Assembly (NCBI GenBank): GCA_021199355.1
Contig: JAJQIF010000016.1
Location: 10,230-74,229 of the forward strand
DNA length: 64,000 nucleotides
Direction of reading: 5' to 3'
From: Oscillospiraceae bacterium
GTDB taxonomy: Bacteria; Bacillota; Clostridia; Oscillospirales; Ruminococcaceae
Shown: positions 3,845-53,949 of the stretch, piece by piece
How positions within the stretch are numbered: the stretch's first letter is position 1
How the letters are laid out: every line of letters starts with the position of its first letter
Notes under the pieces: generated by a model
Databases searched by the model: none
Seen by the model: the letters and a program-made list of their open reading frames with translations, nothing else
Told to the model about the DNA's origin: nothing
Translations under genes and position numbers: made by a program

Positions 3845-4195
3845 GGGGGCGTAAAGGTTTCGACGGGGATTCCGAAGGCGAATAAGCGAGTAGAGAACGC
3901 ACTGATCTCTTTAACCTGTGCAAACCTAAATTTTAAACGACAATAATAGTTTAGAATTGGCTGCTGCCTAATAGCGGCCCGTCCTGCCGATGAGTACTGC
4001 GGCATCGGTCTGGGCGTCGATTAGCAGTGAACGTTCTGCGGTAACTCCGGTAGCCGCAGGATGAATTACCGGATACCGAAGTCACAAGCCTGCTTACCGG
4101 CGTGAGATTTCGGAAATCCAAAAGATAAGCTACACTCGTAGAAAGTTCTCCCAAAGAGTTTTCGGACATGGGTTCGATTCCCATCGCCTCCACCA
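3845..4195 (+). ncRNA. ssrA: tmRNA (SsrA)
   Basis: 5' GGGGGCG pairs with 3' CGCCTCC, followed by ACCA. T-arm GGGTTCGATTCCC. Internal tag frame ..AAC GAC AAT AAT AGT TTA GAA TTG GCT GCT GCC TAA TAG (..NDNNSLELAAA**) at about 3936-3974. Confidence 0.92.
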
Positions 4196-10514: not shown

Positions 10515-11966
10515 TTAGCTCACCGTTTCCGCATCGGGGTCGTATGCCGCGATGGATTCGTTCAGAGCGTTGATGTAGTAGTCAAGCTGTTCGTTATAGG
10601 TCTCCTTGAGCTGTGCCCATGTTGTGGGCTCCTCGGAATAGGCGTTGCCTTCGTAGCTGTAGAGAACCGCATAGAGCTTGTCGCCGTAGCCTTCGTAGTA
10701 GGTGATGACAACCTTGTCAATCTGAGTTGTGAGGTCGTAGCACTCATCCCACATGTCGAGCATTTCCTGAGTCCACATGTAGGTCTCCTCGAGCTGAATT
10801 CTGTCGATGTCGACAACTGTCGGGTCGAGAACCTTGAATCTCATGCAAGCCGCCAGAAGCGCAACGCCCTCGGGGTTCGAAGCACCGTTTACGATGCAGT
10901 AGCCGTCGGCTGTCGATTCCATGTAGTAAACGCCGTCGCCGTCATCATCTCTGGGAAGCGGAACGAACATGACTTCGCCCTCTTCGATGTCGCCCCAGAC
11001 GGAGTTGACGTTCTCAACCGTGTCGGTGAATTCGGAAGTCTCTGCGATGCAGAAGAGCTGAAGTCCTTCCTTGATACCGCCGCCGGAAACGCCGTTGCGG
11101 ATTGACCAGCTCTTGTTCCAGAGCGGATATACGCACTCGTTCTTGCCGAGGTTATAAAGAAGGTTCGCCGCACGCTCAACGGCAGGTGAATCTATATTAC
11201 TCTCAAACTGCTGTGTTTCGGTGTTATACTGGATTATCATCTCGCCACAGGAGTGCATCAGAGCCGCACTGTAGTACCATCCGTCAAGGGCATATCTGTC
11301 CTCATCGACGTCGGAGAAGTCTACGCACATCTCATAGAATTCGTCCCAGGTCCACTCGTCGTTCCAATAGAGCTCGGCGGGGTCGTCATAACCGAATTCC
11401 TCGATGACTCTTCTGTTGTAAACCACAACGTGACCGAAAGCGTTATCATAAACGATGACATAGGGTCTGTCCTTGAGGGAATAGTAGTCATAGGCGAATT
11501 CCTTCTCGCCTTCCCAAAGCGGGTCGTCATAGTCTATGTAGGTATCGACCGGCTGGAACATGCCCTTGATGCAGTTTGTCGGGAAGACCTCGTTGCCGCC
11601 CGGGTAGAAGTCGGGTGAGCTTGAAGCCAAGATAAGGTTTGCCAGTTCGTCAAAACGTGTATCCCAAGAGCACTCGTACCACTCGATAGAGCAGCCGTAC
11701 TTCTCCTGGAACGTCCAATAGCCTGAATTGATGATTTCATCGTCGGAATAGTTCTGCATATCGTCATACCATGCGAACCAGACGATGGTTGAATTTGCCG
11801 CAGATGTCTCTTCAACAGTCGGAAGATAAACGCCCGCCGCATTAAGGATAGCCTCGGCATCCTGTGTAGCGAAAGTAAGCTGAACTACCTCTTTATTTGC
11901 ACTGCCGCAACCGACCAAAGAAATAATCAGTATTCCGGCAAGAAGAAGCGAAATTACCTTCTTCAT
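10515..11966 (-). CDS. Extracellular solute-binding-like lipoprotein, paralog 1 (orphan, no permease nearby)
   Basis: Start reassigned to ATG 11966 (GGAGGTG SD; MKKVISLLLAGILIISLVGC|GS lipobox). The longer track ORF runs through its own promoter. About 70% identical by eye to 12552-14009. Confidence 0.6.
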   Translation of the reverse strand: MKKVISLLLAGILIISLVGCGSANKEVVQLTFATQDAEAILNAAGVYLPTVEETSAANSTIVWFAWYDDMQNYSDDEIINSGYWTFQEKYGCSIEWYECSWDTRFDELANLILASSSPDFYPGGNEVFPTNCIKGMFQPVDTYIDYDDPLWEGEKEFAYDYYSLKDRPYVIVYDNAFGHVVVYNRRVIEEFGYDDPAELYWNDEWTWDEFYEMCVDFSDVDEDRYALDGWYYSAALMHSCGEMIIQYNTETQQFESNIDSPAVERAANLLYNLGKNECVYPLWNKSWSIRNGVSGGGIKEGLQLFCIAETSEFTDTVENVNSVWGDIEEGEVMFVPLPRDDDGDGVYYMESTADGYCIVNGASNPEGVALLAACMRFKVLDPTVVDIDRIQLEETYMWTQEMLDMWDECYDLTTQIDKVVITYYEGYGDKLYAVLYSYEGNAYSEEPTTWAQLKETYNEQLDYYINALNESIAAYDPDAETVS

Positions 11967-12026
11967 TAAAGCACCTCCAAAAAGAATTTTGCTAAAAAGC
12001 TTGTCTAAAAAAAGCCTGCTTTTTTT

Positions 12027-12055
12027 ATTATACACCTTTTCACAAGCAAATTCAA
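12027..12055 (-). promoter_or_regulatory. Sigma-A promoter of lipoprotein paralog 1 (TTGAAT-17-TATAAT)
   Basis: Minus-strand hexamers with a 17-nt spacer. The homologous sequence is found upstream of paralog 2. Confidence 0.6.
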
Positions 12056-12124: not shown

Positions 12125-12153
12125 AATAAAAAAGCTGTTGACAAAACAACAGC
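12125..12153 (-). terminator. Terminator of the small-peptide mRNA (locus 1); its stem contains the -35 of the antisense promoter
   Basis: Minus strand GCTGTTG-TTTTGT-CAACAGC followed by TTTTTTATT. Confidence 0.65.
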
Positions 12154-12166
12154 GATGGAGTATAAT
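12138..12166 (+). promoter_or_regulatory. Consensus sigma-A promoter of the antisense RNA (locus 1)
   Basis: TTGACA-17 nt-TATAAT, perfect hexamers. Confidence 0.75.
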
Positions 12167-12172
12167 AAAAGA

Positions 12173-12307
12173 GGTGAGAGGATAGGTTACGGACAAAGTC
12201 CCTAACTTAGCCTGAATTGCAGTTCAGGCGACGGTCACTCTTTCCAATAATCAAAGACCATTAGTTAGAATGCCGCGCTGAATCAATCAGACGCGGTTAT
12301 TTCTTCT
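12173..12307 (+). ncRNA. Candidate type I antitoxin / antisense RNA (locus 1)
   Basis: No ORF. Starts about 7 nt after the -10. Internal hairpins (CCTGAA..TTCAGG). Ends at hairpin 12273-12296 plus TTATTTCTTCT. Complementary to the 3' UTR and last codons of the convergent peptide gene. Confidence 0.55.
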
Positions 12308-12389
12308 GGTTAGAACCCACGGTGTAACCAACAGTAAAGGCAGTCAAGAGCAAAGCTAAGACCTCCAAGATTATAGAAATAATCTCCAT
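12297..12389 (-). CDS. Candidate type I toxin: 30-aa hydrophobic peptide MEIISIILEVLALLLTAFTVGYTVGSNQKK
   Basis: GGAGGTG SD 7 nt upstream of the ATG. Single TM-length helix plus KK tail. Own consensus promoter. Paralog at 53099-53188. Confidence 0.6.
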   Translation of the reverse strand: MEIISIILEVLALLLTAFTVGYTVGSNQKK

Positions 12390-12440
12390 CAGCGTCACCT
12401 CCTCTCACGAGGAAAGAGTAGCCAACCTCTCACTGTCGAC

Positions 12441-12551: not shown

Positions 12552-14009
12552 CTATCCTTCGTAGTCATTCATCTGATACGGGTCGTAGGAATCAATCTGG
12601 GCGTTCAGCTCGGCTACATAGTACTCAAGCTGTTCGTTATACGATTCCTTGATCTGTGCCCATGTGGAGGCATCAGAGGAGTCTGCGATTGACTCGTACT
12701 TCTCGGTTACAGCCTGAAGCTTGTCGCCCAAGCCGGAATCGTAAACGACGATGAGGTTTTCTGCGGACGATGCAAGTCTGTAGCACTCGTCATACATGTC
12801 GAGCATTTCCTGAGTCCAGAGGTAGGTTTCCTCGAGCTGGATACGGTCGATGGAGATAACAGTCGGGTCGAGAACCTTGAATCTCATGCAAGCCGCCAGG
12901 AGCACAACGCCTTCGGGGTTCGAAGCACCCTGAACGATGCAGTAGCCGGAAGCGGCAGACTCGGTGTAGTAGTAGCCGTCGCCGTCGTCATCTCTGGGGA
13001 GAGGAACGAACATGAGCTCGCCATCGGTGACATCGCCGAATACAGCGCTGATTTCCGCAACGGTTCCGGTGAATACCCATGAACCACGGATGTAGAAGAG
13101 AAGAAGTCCTTCCTTCATGCCGCCGCCCTCGGTGCTGTTACGGAGGCTCCAGCCGTTATTCCATCTCGGATAGATGCAGTCGTTCTTATTGAGGTCATAG
13201 AGAAGCTGTGCCGCACGCTCGATAGGCGCAGAATCAACGTTGATTTCATACTGCTGTGTCTCGGTGTTGTAGACAATTATCGTCTCGCCACTCGAGTGCA
13301 TGATACCGTGGTTATAACCCCAACCGTCAAGAGCATATCTGTCCTCGTCAGGGTCGGAGAAGTCAACGCACATCTCATAGAATACGTCCCATGTCCACTC
13401 GTCGTTATAGTAGAGCTCGGCGGGGTCGTCATAGCCCCATTCTTCCATAACTCTGCGGTTATAAGCAACAACGTTGCCGAAGGTGTTATCAAAGATGATT
13501 ATGTAGGGTCTGTTCTTGATTGAGAAGTAGTTGTAAGCATAGTCCTTCTCGTCTGCCCAAAGCGGGTCGTCATAGTCCATGTAGTCGTCAACGGGGACGA
13601 ACATGCCCTTGATACATCTTGTCGGGAAGATTTCGTTATCTCCGGGGTAGAAGTCGGGAGAGTTGGAAGCCAAGATAAGAGTTGCAAGCTCGTCATATCT
13701 TGTTTCCCAAGTGCATTCATCCCACTTGATTGCGCAGCCATACTTCTCCTGGAAGGTCCAGTAGCCGGAATTGATAATTTCATCTTCCGAATAGTTCTGC
13801 ATGCCGTCATACCAAGCGAACCATCTGACTGTGGAGCCAGCCGCCGCAGTTTCCTCTGCATCGGGAAGATAGATACCTGCTGCATTGAGGATGTCTTCAG
13901 CGTCCTGGGTATTGAACGTGAGCTGAACAACCTCACGCGAGGAGCTTCCACAGCCGACCAAAGCGATAATCATTAGCCCTGCCATAAGCATTGCGATGAT
14001 TCTTTTCAT
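12552..14009 (-). CDS. Extracellular solute-binding-like lipoprotein, paralog 2
   Basis: Start reassigned to ATG 14009 (AGGAGG SD; MKRIIAMLMAGLMIIALVGC|GS). Collinear homology with paralogs 1 and 3. Confidence 0.6.
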   Translation of the reverse strand: MKRIIAMLMAGLMIIALVGCGSSSREVVQLTFNTQDAEDILNAAGIYLPDAEETAAAGSTVRWFAWYDGMQNYSEDEIINSGYWTFQEKYGCAIKWDECTWETRYDELATLILASNSPDFYPGDNEIFPTRCIKGMFVPVDDYMDYDDPLWADEKDYAYNYFSIKNRPYIIIFDNTFGNVVAYNRRVMEEWGYDDPAELYYNDEWTWDVFYEMCVDFSDPDEDRYALDGWGYNHGIMHSSGETIIVYNTETQQYEINVDSAPIERAAQLLYDLNKNDCIYPRWNNGWSLRNSTEGGGMKEGLLLFYIRGSWVFTGTVAEISAVFGDVTDGELMFVPLPRDDDGDGYYYTESAASGYCIVQGASNPEGVVLLAACMRFKVLDPTVISIDRIQLEETYLWTQEMLDMYDECYRLASSAENLIVVYDSGLGDKLQAVTEKYESIADSSDASTWAQIKESYNEQLEYYVAELNAQIDSYDPYQMNDYEG

Positions 14010-14059
14010 TACATTACCTCCTGAATACCTGTGTTCCAAGTATATTTTCGTGTTCTTTA

Positions 14060-51426: not shown

Positions 51427-51642
51427 ATGACCGTTACGGCAACAGAATTCAAAATGAACCTCGGAAAATACCTCGTTCTTGCGGAAACCGAGGACGTATT
51501 TATCTCGAAAAACGGCAAAGTAAGCGTCAAGCTTGTCAACAGCAATCAGGATAAGGTCGAGGCAATGCGGTCTCTCTTCGGAATTCTCCCGTCGGACATT
51601 TCTCTTGAAGAAGCCCGGGAAGAGAGGCTCGGGAAGATATGA
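51427..51642 (+). CDS. Type II antitoxin, Phd/YefM family
   Basis: 71 aa; N-terminal VTATEFKMNLGKYL pattern. 4-nt overlap with the PIN gene. Confidence 0.75.
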   Translation: MTVTATEFKMNLGKYLVLAETEDVFISKNGKVSVKLVNSNQDKVEAMRSLFGILPSDISLEEAREERLGKI

Positions 51643-52064
51643 ACGTAATTGTGGACACCTGCATCATCATCGACGCTCTCGCCAACCGTGAGCCGTTTGC
51701 GGGGGACGCCCAGGCACTTTGCCTTTCTGTTGCAAACGATGAAATCACAGGATTTATCCCCGCGAAATCCGTTGCGGACATCTACTATATCATGCACAAG
51801 TGCTTCCACAGCGATTCGCAGACCCGGGAACTGCTGAAAAAGCTCTTTATGTCCTTCGGCATTCTCGACACCACTGCCCTTGACTGCCGCAACGCCCTGA
51901 CTTCCCCGATTTCCGACTTCGAGGACGCCATCCTCGCCGAAACCGCCTATAGATGCGGCGTGGATTACATCGTCACGAGGAATACGCGTGACTTCGCCCG
52001 CTCCGTTGTGCCGGTGGTGACGGCTGGGGAGATTATGGAGATGTGTGGGGATAATTCATTATGA
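51639..52064 (+). CDS. vapC: Type II toxin, PIN-domain ribonuclease VapC
   Basis: 141 aa; VIVDTCIIIDAL N-terminal acidic motif, later D/E residues (FEDAI). Confidence 0.8.
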   Translation: MNVIVDTCIIIDALANREPFAGDAQALCLSVANDEITGFIPAKSVADIYYIMHKCFHSDSQTRELLKKLFMSFGILDTTALDCRNALTSPISDFEDAILAETAYRCGVDYIVTRNTRDFARSVVPVVTAGEIMEMCGDNSL

Positions 52065-52963
52065 ACGAAACCAGAAATCTTACCGCCGAGGAATGGGCGG
52101 AATTTGCAGGGGTATTTGAGAAAGCCGGGGTTTACAGCCCCGATTCGGTGCGGAGATTCGTCGATACCCGCCTCAACAAAATATACGACGTCTTCCTATT
52201 GGACGGCAAGCTTGTGTTGAAGAAGTCCGATCGCGACAAGGAGAAGTTTGAGAATTATTTCGCCGGTCACGGCTTCTCGGTCCCGCTTGTTGTCTCAAGC
52301 TTTCGGCATGGCGACGACTGCTGGGTGACTATGCCGTATATAGACGGCACGGACGCAAGAGATTGCTCGCCCGAGGATGCAGAGAAAGTCGGCAGGGAGC
52401 TCGCGAAAATTCAGAGCTACTATCTCGGCACCGGTACCAATCCCGACGGGTGCAAAAGCTACTTTGACCGCAAGGTTCTTCGGTTCTGGGAGAAGAGCCG
52501 CAAGTATTTTCCCGAATACAGCGACATTTTCGGAGCAATCGAAGCCCGTTTCTTTTCGGCTCCACGGACACTGATTCACGATGATTTTCTCCCGATAAAC
52601 GCTCTTCTGGACGGCGAAAACGCCTGGCTCATCGACTGGACGTATGCCGACATTCTCCCCTACTTTCTGGACTTGGGGCGGTTCGCCTTTGTCGGGTACG
52701 AAGATGGCAAGCCGTACATCTCCACCGATTCCGCAAAGGCGTTCCTTGAGGCTTACTACGAAGAAATGCGCCGGAATCCCCGGTTTACAGTTAACAGGCA
52801 GGAATTCTCCCGCGACACCGCCATCTCCGCCTTCTGCCAGTACTCAATGTTTGTATATTTCGAGGAAGAGGAAAAAGTGAAAGAGTCAGAGGATTATCGC
52901 ATGCTTGGGGAGATTCTTGGGTATCTTGATAAGGAATTTAAAAGCACAAAAAAATCCTCTTGA
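52061..52963 (+). CDS. APH/choline-kinase-like phosphotransferase
   Basis: 300 aa. Brenner motif LIHDDFLPINAL and LIDWTYA (DxD-like) loop. ATGA overlap with vapC. Confidence 0.7.
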   Translation: MNETRNLTAEEWAEFAGVFEKAGVYSPDSVRRFVDTRLNKIYDVFLLDGKLVLKKSDRDKEKFENYFAGHGFSVPLVVSSFRHGDDCWVTMPYIDGTDARDCSPEDAEKVGRELAKIQSYYLGTGTNPDGCKSYFDRKVLRFWEKSRKYFPEYSDIFGAIEARFFSAPRTLIHDDFLPINALLDGENAWLIDWTYADILPYFLDLGRFAFVGYEDGKPYISTDSAKAFLEAYYEEMRRNPRFTVNRQEFSRDTAISAFCQYSMFVYFEEEEKVKESEDYRMLGEILGYLDKEFKSTKKSS

Positions 52964-52971
52964 CAAAGAGG
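52946..52971 (-). terminator. Terminator of the small-peptide mRNA (locus 2); its stem contains the -35 of the antisense promoter and the kinase stop codon
   Basis: Minus strand CCTCTT-TGTC-AAGAGG followed by ATTTTTTTG. Confidence 0.6.
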
Positions 52972-52988
52972 AAGAAGTGGCATATAAT
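52960..52988 (+). promoter_or_regulatory. Consensus sigma-A promoter of the antisense RNA (locus 2)
   Basis: TTGACA-17 nt-TATAAT. Confidence 0.75.
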
Positions 52989-52994
52989 AAAAGT

Positions 52995-53108
52995 AGCGAG
53001 AGGGTTGCCTGAACGCCAATTCAGACAACACGGTCACTCTCCGAACAAATAATGTTACAGGAAAGCGAAGCTGTTTTTGACCATCCGGTCAAGGACAGCT
53101 ATTTCTTT
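52995..53108 (+). ncRNA. Candidate type I antitoxin / antisense RNA (locus 2)
   Basis: No ORF. Shares the block CGGTCACTCT with the locus 1 RNA. Ends at the 14-bp hairpin 53069-53100 plus ATTTCTTT, which is the complement of the Lys-Lys-stop codons. Confidence 0.55.
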
Positions 53109-53188
53109 GAGCTATTGCCGATGGTAATGCCCAAATTGATAGCCGAAATCAGCAAACCCAGAAGTTGAATCATAGTTGAAACGTCCAT
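53099..53188 (-). CDS. Candidate type I toxin: 29-aa hydrophobic peptide MDVSTMIQLLGLLISAINLGITIGNSSKK
   Basis: AAAGGAG SD 8 nt upstream. Homologous to the 12297-12389 peptide (..G.T.G.N..KK* tail). Own promoter. Confidence 0.6.
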   Translation of the reverse strand: MDVSTMIQLLGLLISAINLGITIGNSSKK

Positions 53189-53238
53189 GAGCATCACTCC
53201 TTTCCGTTCGGAAGAAGTGACTGCCTCTCGCTGAATGT

Positions 53239-53282: not shown

Positions 53283-53460
53283 TTGTATTATCAGCTTGAA
53301 GTTGATATAAAGAAACAACCGCAACATAGTATAGCGGTTAGCGGTCAATCTTCAAGTTTTTGAATTTTAGAGGTTGTACCCCAAACTGCTGGAACAGTTT
53401 CGTCTCCTCATGTCATTACTATACGTCATTCATCCCTCTTTGTCAAGAGGCTTTTTTATT
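53283..53460. ncRNA. Convergent promoter/terminator pair without an ORF (possible overlapping sRNA pair or decayed TA copy)
   Basis: + strand: TTGTAT-17-TATAAA (53283-53311), then hairpin CCTCTT-TGTC-AAGAGG plus T-tract (53435-53460). - strand: TTGACA-17-TATAGT (53446-53418), then AACCGC..GCGGTT plus U-rich (53339-53305). Confidence 0.4.
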
Positions 53461-53595
53461 TTAACCCCAAGTCCCCTCCCCGCATAAAATGAACCAAGCT
53501 TCCGTTTTCTCCCCGACGGGGCTGAATAAACGGCTTTGATGTCGTCAACAATATGAGTACAAAAGCGTTTATTCATCGAAAGGAATGGTGATTTT

Positions 53596-53949
53596 ATGTC
53601 AATGCCGGTGCCGGTATACAGAGGAGAGATTTATTATGCGGACTTAAGTCCCGTAATTGGCAGTGAACAAGGAGGAATCCGTCCCGTACTTATAGTTCAG
53701 AACGACGTTGGAAACCGTCATTCGCCGACGGTCATCGCCGCCGCTATCACAAGTCAACGGGAAAAGACCCACCTGCCGACGCATATCGAGATAGACTCGA
53801 ACTCATGCGGGCTCGCAAAGGATAGCATTGTTCTTTTGGAGCAGATTCGCACGATTGACAAAAAGCGCTTGAAGGAGCGCATGGGCGTTTTGGACCAGAC
53901 CTCTATGGACAAAATAAATCAGGCACTTGCCGTGAGTTTAGGAATGTAG
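53596..53949 (+). CDS. mazF: MazF/PemK-family endoribonuclease toxin
   Basis: 117 aa; RGEIYYADLSPVIGSEQGGIRPVLIVQND..., typical MazF/EndoA. Confidence 0.9.
   Translation: MSMPVPVYRGEIYYADLSPVIGSEQGGIRPVLIVQNDVGNRHSPTVIAAAITSQREKTHLPTHIEIDSNSCGLAKDSIVLLEQIRTIDKKRLKERMGVLDQTSMDKINQALAVSLGM

Follow-up and report, generated by a model that had tools for sequence, protein, structure and literature searches.

Hairpins between the Shine-Dalgarno (SD) sequence and an anti-SD segment, together with long-distance interactions between the 5' and 3' ends, are standard descriptors of type I toxin mRNAs (PMC8594479). In the bsrG mRNA, nucleotides (nt) 1-35 pair with nt 232-262 beside the terminator, and the SD is held in a 4-bp helix; upon binding of the antisense RNA SR4, nt 1-33 become single-stranded, the helix around the SD lengthens from 4 to 8 bp, and bsrG translation is lowered in addition to the mRNA decay that SR4 promotes (PMC3834814). 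We describe here two loci of similar layout in a 64,000-nt stretch of Oscillospiraceae bacterium DNA (GenBank assembly GCA_021199355.1, contig JAJQIF010000016.1, positions 10,230 to 74,229), hereafter referred to as the window. The loci are homologous minus-strand units of ~300 nt each (locus 1, 12433-~12126; locus 2, 53232-~52948), and their predicted mRNAs have in common a sigma-70-type promoter, a leader with a GGAGG-type SD, an open reading frame (ORF) of 29-30 codons, a 3' untranslated region (UTR) of ~130 nt, and an intrinsic terminator. We conclude that they represent a new, unannotated type I toxin-antitoxin-like family that is built on a known design, and whose structural elements are well supported.

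Two long-range helices and two hairpins are central to the comparison. P1 joins the extreme 5' end of the mRNA to a 3'-UTR segment that is complementary to the start of a convergent antisense RNA. P2, a helix of 10-14 bp, joins the leader segment just 3' of P1, which includes most of the anti-SD arm, to a 3'-UTR segment immediately 5' of P3, a conserved local hairpin. This last segment, the 3' arm of P2, resembles the SD region and is called the decoy. The SD hairpin pairs the anti-SD arm with the SD itself.

The loci resemble bsrG/SR4 in the ~300-nt toxin mRNA, in the short hydrophobic peptide with terminal lysines, in an antisense RNA that overlaps the 3' part of the mRNA (here 12174-~12305 and 52995-~53108, from the P1 3' arm to the stop codon), in a long 5'/3' helix that closes the mRNA beside the terminator, and in an SD that lies within a helix. 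Binding of SR4 frees the 5' arm and strengthens SD sequestration, and by analogy the antisense RNAs described here may do the same. Several differences are also apparent. The long-range helix is split here into P1 and P2 around a hairpin; since this long-range helix includes the anti-SD arm, its 3' arm mimics the SD. With ~115-130 nt, the antisense RNA is shorter than SR4 (180 nt), the host is a chromosomal Oscillospiraceae and not a Bacillus prophage, and neither peptide homology nor an Rfam match could be detected.

In hok/Sok, the antisense RNA binds the 5' leader at the mok SD region, and in aapA1/IsoA1 it binds the 5' region of the toxin mRNA; in both, activation of the mRNA requires 3' trimming. 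An earlier reading of the window sequence (the original prediction) likened the two loci to the hok-type logic of fold-back and translation activation. The fold-back part of the comparison holds, since in hok/Sok of plasmid R1 and aapA1/IsoA1 of Helicobacter pylori a 5'-3' interaction and SD sequestration likewise keep the toxin mRNA inert, both features being general for type I toxin mRNAs (PMC8594479). As the closest match, however, hok/Sok has to give way to bsrG/SR4, whose antisense RNA overlaps the 3' end; in hok/Sok and aapA1/IsoA1 the antisense RNA acts at the 5' side, whereas here it covers the 3' arms. The par system (fst/RNA II) of Enterococcus faecalis plasmid pAD1 is also similar, with convergent transcripts, an SD-sequestering stem-loop, and a helix that hides RNA I's extreme 5' end and contributes to its stability (PMC7472228). 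Unlike the RNAs described here, the par RNAs share a bidirectional terminator and pair through 5' direct repeats (DRa/DRb); here, a separate terminator serves the antisense RNA at the stop codon, the mRNA extends across the antisense promoter, and the peptide is not Fst-like and matches no Pfam family. Full-text searches of the literature returned no paper describing a type I system in Oscillospiraceae or Ruminococcus, and the T1TAdb paper mentions neither Clostridia nor Ruminococcus.

Conserved Helices at the Ends of the Peptide mRNA

To collect homologs, a DNA pattern search over one genome per species was used. The pattern was the block identical in both loci (GAGUGACCG and the adjacent hairpin), which is independent of both P1 and the SD hairpin. 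An nhmmer profile was then run on the matching contigs, and at least 35 full-length homologous loci, window loci included, were obtained from about 10 Oscillospiraceae/Ruminococcus metagenome-assembled genome (MAG) species. Twenty-eight of them, both window loci among these, constitute type A; the remaining 7 are divergent, lack the search pattern, and constitute type B. About two thirds of the at least 113 pattern-matching loci were chance matches in unrelated phyla, and were removed by nhmmer filtering.

According to the original prediction, the convergent transcripts of each locus begin with the same 8-9 nt, which provides the peptide mRNA with complementary ends. Such ends are present in both loci, and are conserved and covary in 35 homologous loci. 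All four P1 segments of the window begin 7 nt past a -10 box, and the mRNA and antisense RNA are therefore predicted to share their first 8-9 nt. In every locus, the sequence past the mRNA -10 box is the same as that past the antisense -10 box, but the spacers and discriminators vary between the promoters. About ten versions of this shared sequence are present (including GGUGAGAGG, GAUGAGAGG, AGUGAGAGG, GGUGGGAGG, AGCGAGAGG, AGCAAGAGGG, AGCAAGAGAG, and GACAUGGGGAGAC); thus, both arms of P1, which is 8-12 bp long, change together. The P1 3' arm does not coincide with the very 3' end: the terminator hairpin follows after ~20 nt, and the predicted end of the mRNA after ~50 nt. The complement of the locus 1 5' 8-mer occurs once on the relevant strand of the 64-kb window, exactly at the homologous position.

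P1 was predicted by RNAalifold without any hint in type A and again in type B, and was part of the minimum-energy fold of 35/35 loci. In the type A alignment, 85% of cells over 11 tested pairs could pair, compared to 38-55% in slid registers, and only 5 of about 223 cells were unpaired in the eight columns of the P1 core. Two-sided changes were observed in six P1 pairs, for example at columns 8/334 (GC 18, AU 9) and 9/333 (UA 24, CG 3). The latter is the U-A pair of locus 1 that is replaced by C-G in locus 2; it had been singled out as a compensatory change, and proved to be one of several. The P1 covariation score was 0.213 versus 0.130 for shuffled alignments, none of 500 shuffles reaching the observed score, and the summed duplex energy of cognate arms (-676) was well below that of permuted partners (-521 +/- 19; 0/20000).

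The same 8-9 nt behind both promoters of a locus could, in principle, also mark a DNA-level protein site. We consider this unlikely. Paralogs located on one contig (L055) carry different matched 5'/3' sequences, so a separate binding protein would be needed for each paralog, and the mismatches are often compatible with G-U pairing.

A second exact copy of GUGAGAGG, the P1 5' arm of locus 1, is found in the leader of this locus (12401-12408, minus strand), where it spans the loop of the hairpin and the first part of the SD. The SD region is therefore a possible alternative to the 5' end as pairing partner of the P1 3' arm, CCUCUCAC. In the family as a whole, the 5' arm of P1 resembles an SD and its 3' arm an anti-SD.

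The leader hairpins that sequester the SD (12415-12398 and 53219-53195) are as originally written, and they covary. In the type A alignment, 86.5% of cells were paired and the score exceeded those of all 500 shuffles and all slid registers, with covariation being clear near the loop (column 31/39; CG 12, UA 12). Unconstrained RNAfold runs on both ~300-nt window mRNAs gave minimum-energy folds that contained the SD hairpin as well as the 5'/3' helix, with z-scores relative to dinucleotide shuffles of -5.9 (locus 1) and -5.7 (locus 2). Across the family, the SD hairpin appeared in the minimum-energy fold of 14/35 loci. The structural part of the original prediction is supported by the folds and strengthened by the homologs, the P1 and SD hairpin scores being above 500/500 shuffles. 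In two loci (L049:4045-4356 and L133:3776-4105), an extra hairpin (GUUCAGC...GCUGAAC) is inserted between the SD and the start codon, which places the AUG 20-30 nt from the SD in sequence.

A 3'-UTR segment complementary to the anti-SD arm had also been noted earlier; it is indeed present, is longer than described, and is conserved in position, with sequence that differs by subfamily. The P2 helix that it forms with the leader has 12/13 positions paired in locus 1; in locus 2, it has 14 bp and is interrupted by two 1-nt bulges. The GAGUGACCGU core of its 3' arm is identical in both window loci. The position of P2 is maintained with at least six different sequence versions, including those of the divergent type B loci (Table 1). 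In type A, 85.7% of cells were paired versus 48-58% in slid registers, with one clear swap (column 28/263; UA 15, AU 7). In type B alone, column-wise support was modest (72.7% paired; 36/500 shuffles). The duplex energy of cognate P2 arms was -727 versus -612 +/- 18 for permuted arms; in 22/35 loci, P2 was part of the minimum-energy fold. P2 and the SD hairpin are mutually exclusive, since both need the anti-SD arm. The two states are close in energy throughout the family, the cost of forcing P2 being 2.9 kcal/mol (locus 1) or 4.5 kcal/mol (locus 2). The decoy lies inside the region covered by the antisense RNA, which would mask it, as had been proposed.

A candidate local hairpin in the 3' UTR pairs the P2 3' arm with a segment just past the antisense terminator hairpin (12267-12272 with 12235-12240; columns 232-240 with 276-285 of alignment A3). 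This "anti-decoy" hairpin was seen when locus 1 was folded and again in the consensus of type B, and a matched change is present in L055a (GGUUACC with GGUAACC). It would constitute the fourth element of an attenuator-like chain.

A Proposed Antisense-Driven Switch and Its Alternatives

On balance, we favor the view that each locus is a type I toxin-antitoxin-like module wired in the same way as bsrG/SR4, with the antisense RNA displacing the leader and the SD hairpin forming as a result. In the free mRNA, the first ~25 nt would pair with two segments of the 3' UTR as P1 and P2, which would flank P3 and close the mRNA just upstream of the terminator. The decoy and the genuine SD would compete for the anti-SD arm, which would leave the leader with two states of almost equal energy, one with P2 and one with the SD hairpin. 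The antisense RNA contains the complement of P3 and, in full, that of the 3' arms of P1 and P2, and is thus, in effect, a copy of the leader. Its binding would displace the leader from the 3' arms, whereupon the leader would collapse into the SD-sequestering hairpin and translation would be blocked. The mRNA 5' end would be exposed at the same time, and the mRNA/antisense duplex of more than 100 bp would be a substrate for decay, presumably by cellular nucleases. The direction of the switch, with the free mRNA as the presumed translated state, is proposed by analogy and from weak thermodynamic differences.

Antisense binding was simulated by masking the 3' UTR in folds. The expected SD-leader pairs increased in 19 loci and decreased in 3 (p = 3e-4), and the unpaired fraction of the 5' end rose from 0.03 to 0.29 (p = 3e-7). 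Several observations weigh against the proposed switch. In the P2 state, RNAfold pairs the SD with segments of the coding region, and for this reason masking changed SD accessibility in the family little (unpaired fraction from 0.22 to 0.17); in silico, the SD is mostly paired in both conformers. The minimum-energy folds of the window loci already contain the SD hairpin, and masking of the 3' UTR leaves their SD pairing unchanged. The homologs come from about 10 related MAG species and include many paralogs, so independent covariation events are fewer than the cell counts suggest, and the P2 3' arm is part of the type A search pattern, which limits the variation that can be observed there. Finally, the transcription start sites (TSSs) and 3' ends are predicted ones, and the peptides, which match no known toxin family, are toxic by presumption.

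Exposure of the 5' end was the most consistent effect of masking, SD accessibility being shifted little, and this is what a purely stabilizing role of the helices would also produce, in the manner of the par RNA I upstream helix or of txpA/RatA. P1 would then hide the 5' end from 5'-dependent nucleases, the SD hairpin would slow translation, the antisense RNA would create an RNase III substrate and expose the 5' end, and P2 would not be a switch. A precedent is provided by par RNA I, in which the 5' upstream helix adds stability and the 5' stem-loop sequesters the SD (PMC7472228). We nevertheless judge this model to be rather improbable. P2 keeps its position in at least six versions and, in nearly all loci, its overlap with the anti-SD arm, which is hard to explain if it has no role; in addition, its energy is close to that of the SD hairpin throughout the family.

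Closure of the mRNA by P1 in 35/35 folds, and the presence of the SD hairpin in both window minimum-energy folds, are also compatible with an inert precursor of the hok or aapA1 kind. In such a model, P1 and the SD hairpin lock the full-length mRNA until 3' processing removes the P1 3' arm, or until the decoy, as a translational activator proper, captures the anti-SD arm, and the antisense RNA neutralizes only the activated form. The decoy is conserved and complementary to the anti-SD arm, and forcing P2 raised SD accessibility in locus 1 from 0.035 to 0.31. In locus 2, however, forced P2 barely freed the SD (0.11 to 0.19). The antisense RNA overlaps the 3' UTR and not the leader, so 3' trimming would remove the antisense target together with the decoy, whereas the hok/Sok antisense RNA binds the 5' leader. 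Processing is an assumption of this model. We regard the inert precursor as a distinctly unlikely explanation.

The role of the decoy may be taken further, speculatively and with considerable doubt. The SD mimic in the 3' UTR could serve as an intrinsic activator of translation, and the antisense RNA, as a leader copy, could act by strand displacement. SD, anti-SD arm, and 3' decoy would then be the players of a three-way relay, and the 5' end and the P1 3' arm would add a second pair of SD-like and anti-SD-like elements. Even divergent paralogs have a nearly identical decoy-P3 block, and antisense genes are often found as orphans. On these grounds, the antisense RNAs of uncultured gut Oscillospiraceae could cross-react with many toxin paralogs and make up an antitoxin network.

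Peptides and Class Assignment

The window peptides are hydrophobic, 29-30 amino acids (aa) long, and end in KK; across the 35 loci, the peptides are hydrophobic, 28-35 aa long, and have a K-rich C terminus. The searches of Pfam and NCBIfam returned no family match for the peptides, the window peptides having no Pfam match, and hence none to the Hok family, at E <= 10. Fst was not among the Pfam families matched by any of the 21 family peptides scanned. BsrG itself scores 34.5 bits against Pfam Hol_Tox (PF16935; cutoff 23.3), but only one of the 21 family peptides reached 10.3 bits (E = 0.7), and the other 20 gave nothing. The MT(I/V)YE...KKK appearance of type B peptides had suggested homology to BsrG. 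This was rejected by a test of the family hidden Markov model against shuffled sequences: BsrG scored -1.9 bits, which was equaled or beaten by 2399 of 2871 scored shuffles. We conclude that the system works like bsrG/SR4 but is not a demonstrable member of the BsrG family. A sequence search of the PDB with the peptide profile produced a single match, judged to be due to chance. Most family peptides are absent from a collection of 15 billion proteins, and the few that are present there are nameless.

The lack of a family match, together with a toxicity that is presumed, would also fit a gene for a small membrane peptide with a cis-antisense regulator, a structured noncoding RNA pair, or the DNA-level promoter site of 8-9 nt considered above. 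We find it very hard to credit any of these non-toxin explanations. The ORF, the SD, and the KK terminus are retained in 35/35 loci, and the gap blocks seen in the aligned coding region have widths of 12 and 3 columns. Traits of type I systems are seen as well: multi-copy tandem arrays, orphan antisense genes, and an islet with PIN and PemK/MazF genes. Two hallmarks of the type I class are found, namely a short ORF for a hydrophobic peptide on a short, highly structured mRNA, and, by prediction, a cis antisense RNA that has its own promoter and terminator and is complementary to the toxin mRNA.

The loci thus add an unannotated, multi-copy type I toxin-antitoxin-like family from uncultured gut Oscillospiraceae. 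They also provide comparative, covariation-based support for a switch that combines a 5'/3' helix with SD refolding, a design for which experiments have so far come from bsrG/SR4, with its unrelated peptide family. This suggests either convergence of the RNA design or an origin long before that of the peptides. The helices and their coordinates offer targets for compensatory mutagenesis and a descriptor for annotation of such loci.

Features of the Loci and Their Surroundings

The promoters, terminators, ORFs, and antisense positions identified in silico are listed in Table 1; transcript starts and 3' ends of both RNAs are predicted from sequence in both loci.

Table 1. Coordinates and sequences of the elements of locus 1, locus 2, and the orphan module, and versions of P2 in the family (window positions; strand in brackets).
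Feature	Position (strand)	Sequence	Remarks
Locus 1 peptide mRNA, predicted	12126..12433 (-)		~308 nt; TSS G12433 to U-run past terminator
Locus 1 mRNA promoter	12469-12441 (-)		consensus match 12/12
Locus 1 P1 5' arm	12426..12433 (-)	GUGAGAGG	extreme mRNA 5' end; paired in minimum-energy fold
Locus 1 P2 5' arm	12411..12423 (-)	GGCUACUCUUUCC	7-nt overlap with anti-SD arm
Locus 1 SD-sequestering hairpin	12395..12417 (-)	UCUUUCCUC-GUGA-GAGGAGG-U-GA	core 12415-12398; SD GGAGG 12402-12398
Locus 1 peptide ORF	12297..12389 (-)	MEIISIILEVLALLLTAFTVGYTVGSNQKK	30 aa + stop
Locus 1 P2 3' arm	12233..12245 (-)	GGAAAGAGUGACC	SD-like decoy in 3' UTR
Locus 1 P3 hairpin	12210..12229 (-)	GCCUGAA-CUGCAA-UUCAGGC	between 3' arms of P2 and P1
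Locus 1 second hairpin after P3	12206-12186 (-)		lineage-specific
Locus 1 P1 3' arm	12174..12181 (-)	CCUCUCAC	complement = first 8 nt of antisense RNA
Locus 1 mRNA terminator stem	12134..12153 (-)		followed by T-run; holds antisense -35 box (TTGACA, + strand)
Locus 1 antisense RNA, predicted	12174..12305 (+)		~130 nt; TSS G12174
Locus 1 antisense promoter	12138-12166 (+)		consensus match 12/12
Locus 1 antisense terminator	12273-12296 (+)		hairpin, then U-tract; read from sequence and fold
Locus 2 peptide mRNA, predicted	52948..53232 (-)		~285 nt
Locus 2 mRNA promoter	53267-53239 (-)		consensus match 11/12
Locus 2 P1 5' arm	53224..53232 (-)	AGCGAGAGG	
Locus 2 P2 5' arm	53206..53221 (-)	GUCACUUCUUCCGAAC	
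Locus 2 SD hairpin	53195..53219 (-)	CACUUCUUCC-GAAC-GGAA(A)GGAGUG	
Locus 2 peptide ORF	53099..53188 (-)	MDVSTMIQLLGLLISAINLGITIGNSSKK	29 aa + stop
Locus 2 P2 3' arm	53033..53046 (-)	GUUCGGAGAGUGAC	decoy
Locus 2 P1 3' arm	52995..53003 (-)	CCUCUCGCU	
Locus 2 mRNA terminator	52972-52955 (-)		
Locus 2 antisense RNA, predicted	52995..53108 (+)		~114 nt
Locus 2 antisense promoter	52960-52988 (+)		consensus match 12/12
Locus 2 antisense terminator	53069-53100 (+)		followed by U-tract; intrinsic terminator called
Orphan type B module	53308-53475 (+)		+ strand = mRNA sense; directly upstream of locus 2
Orphan module antisense gene	about 53411-53315 (-)		
Orphan module antisense promoter	53446-53418 (-)		
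P2, type A		GGUUGCUCUUUCC / GGAAAGAGUGACC	leader / 3' UTR
P2, locus 2 type		GUCACUuCUuCCGAAC / GUUCGGAGAGUGAC	leader / 3' UTR
P2, type B1		GUAUAGCCUC / GAGGUUGUGC	leader / 3' UTR
P2, type B2		CGGUUUGACCU / AGGUUGAACCG	leader / 3' UTR
P2, type B2'		CGGCUUGAUCU / AGAUUGAGUCG	leader / 3' UTR
P2, type B3		AACCUCU / AGAGGUU	leader / 3' UTR

All four sigma-70-type promoters of the two loci have a 17-nt spacer; the consensus match is complete (12/12) in three of them and 11/12 in one. The antisense promoter is located within the 3' UTR of each mRNA, its -35 box being part of the mRNA terminator stem, and its -10 and -35 columns are invariant in the alignment of the 28 type A homologs. The antisense RNAs, which are convergent to the mRNAs and ~115-130 nt long, are predicted to end at a hairpin and U-tract at the peptide stop codon. 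The motif TTGTCAA in the mRNA terminator hairpin (12134-12153; 52955-52972) is invariant in 28/28 type A homologs. The U-tract of the antisense terminator is the complement of the last Lys codons and the stop codon (12297-12307, AAGAAAUAA; 53099-53108, AAGAAAUAG); the antisense terminator and the conserved KK end of the peptide are therefore under mutual constraint.

The surroundings of the loci are ordinary chromosome. Several ORF translations in the window resemble, by eye, the products of what we take to be rpsT, a spore protease gene, glmM, and glmS, and a transfer-messenger RNA (tmRNA) gene is located at 3845-4195 on the plus strand (Rfam RF00023, 166.7 bits). This gene was the only hit when the window was scanned with Rfam at the gathering threshold; permissive scans of the two loci yielded nothing beyond sub-threshold chance matches. 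A blastn search of plasmid and phage collections with locus 1 returned no match. Two pattern scans of viral contigs produced chance matches only, in unrelated coding regions; among these was a 7-member family of AT-rich phage genes that has the same gap length by accident.

Locus 1 lies between paralogous genes for solute-binding lipoproteins (10515-12035 and 12552-14039, minus strand; Pfam SBP_bac_1 / SBP_bac_8). This setting recalls par_EF0409 of E. faecalis, which a preprint places between two paralogous phosphotransferase system operons (bioRxiv 10.1101/2022.02.04.479212). Locus 2 is flanked by a PIN-domain gene (51639-52064, plus strand) and a gene for a PemK/MazF-type toxin (53596-53949, plus strand), and is therefore part of a small toxin-antitoxin islet. 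In the list of ORFs of at least 90 aa, no obvious antitoxin ORF was seen upstream of the MazF gene.

Homologs of the two loci often occur several per contig, in tandem. Orphan 3' halves, in which the antisense gene alone is kept, also occur, and one of them is located within the window, next to locus 2. It retains the 3' UTR, the antisense promoter and RNA, and both terminators, and has lost the toxin leader and ORF. At the corresponding place, the relative L136 has a complete type B locus. Comparable orphan antisense genes are found in L055, L066, L077, L104, and L112.

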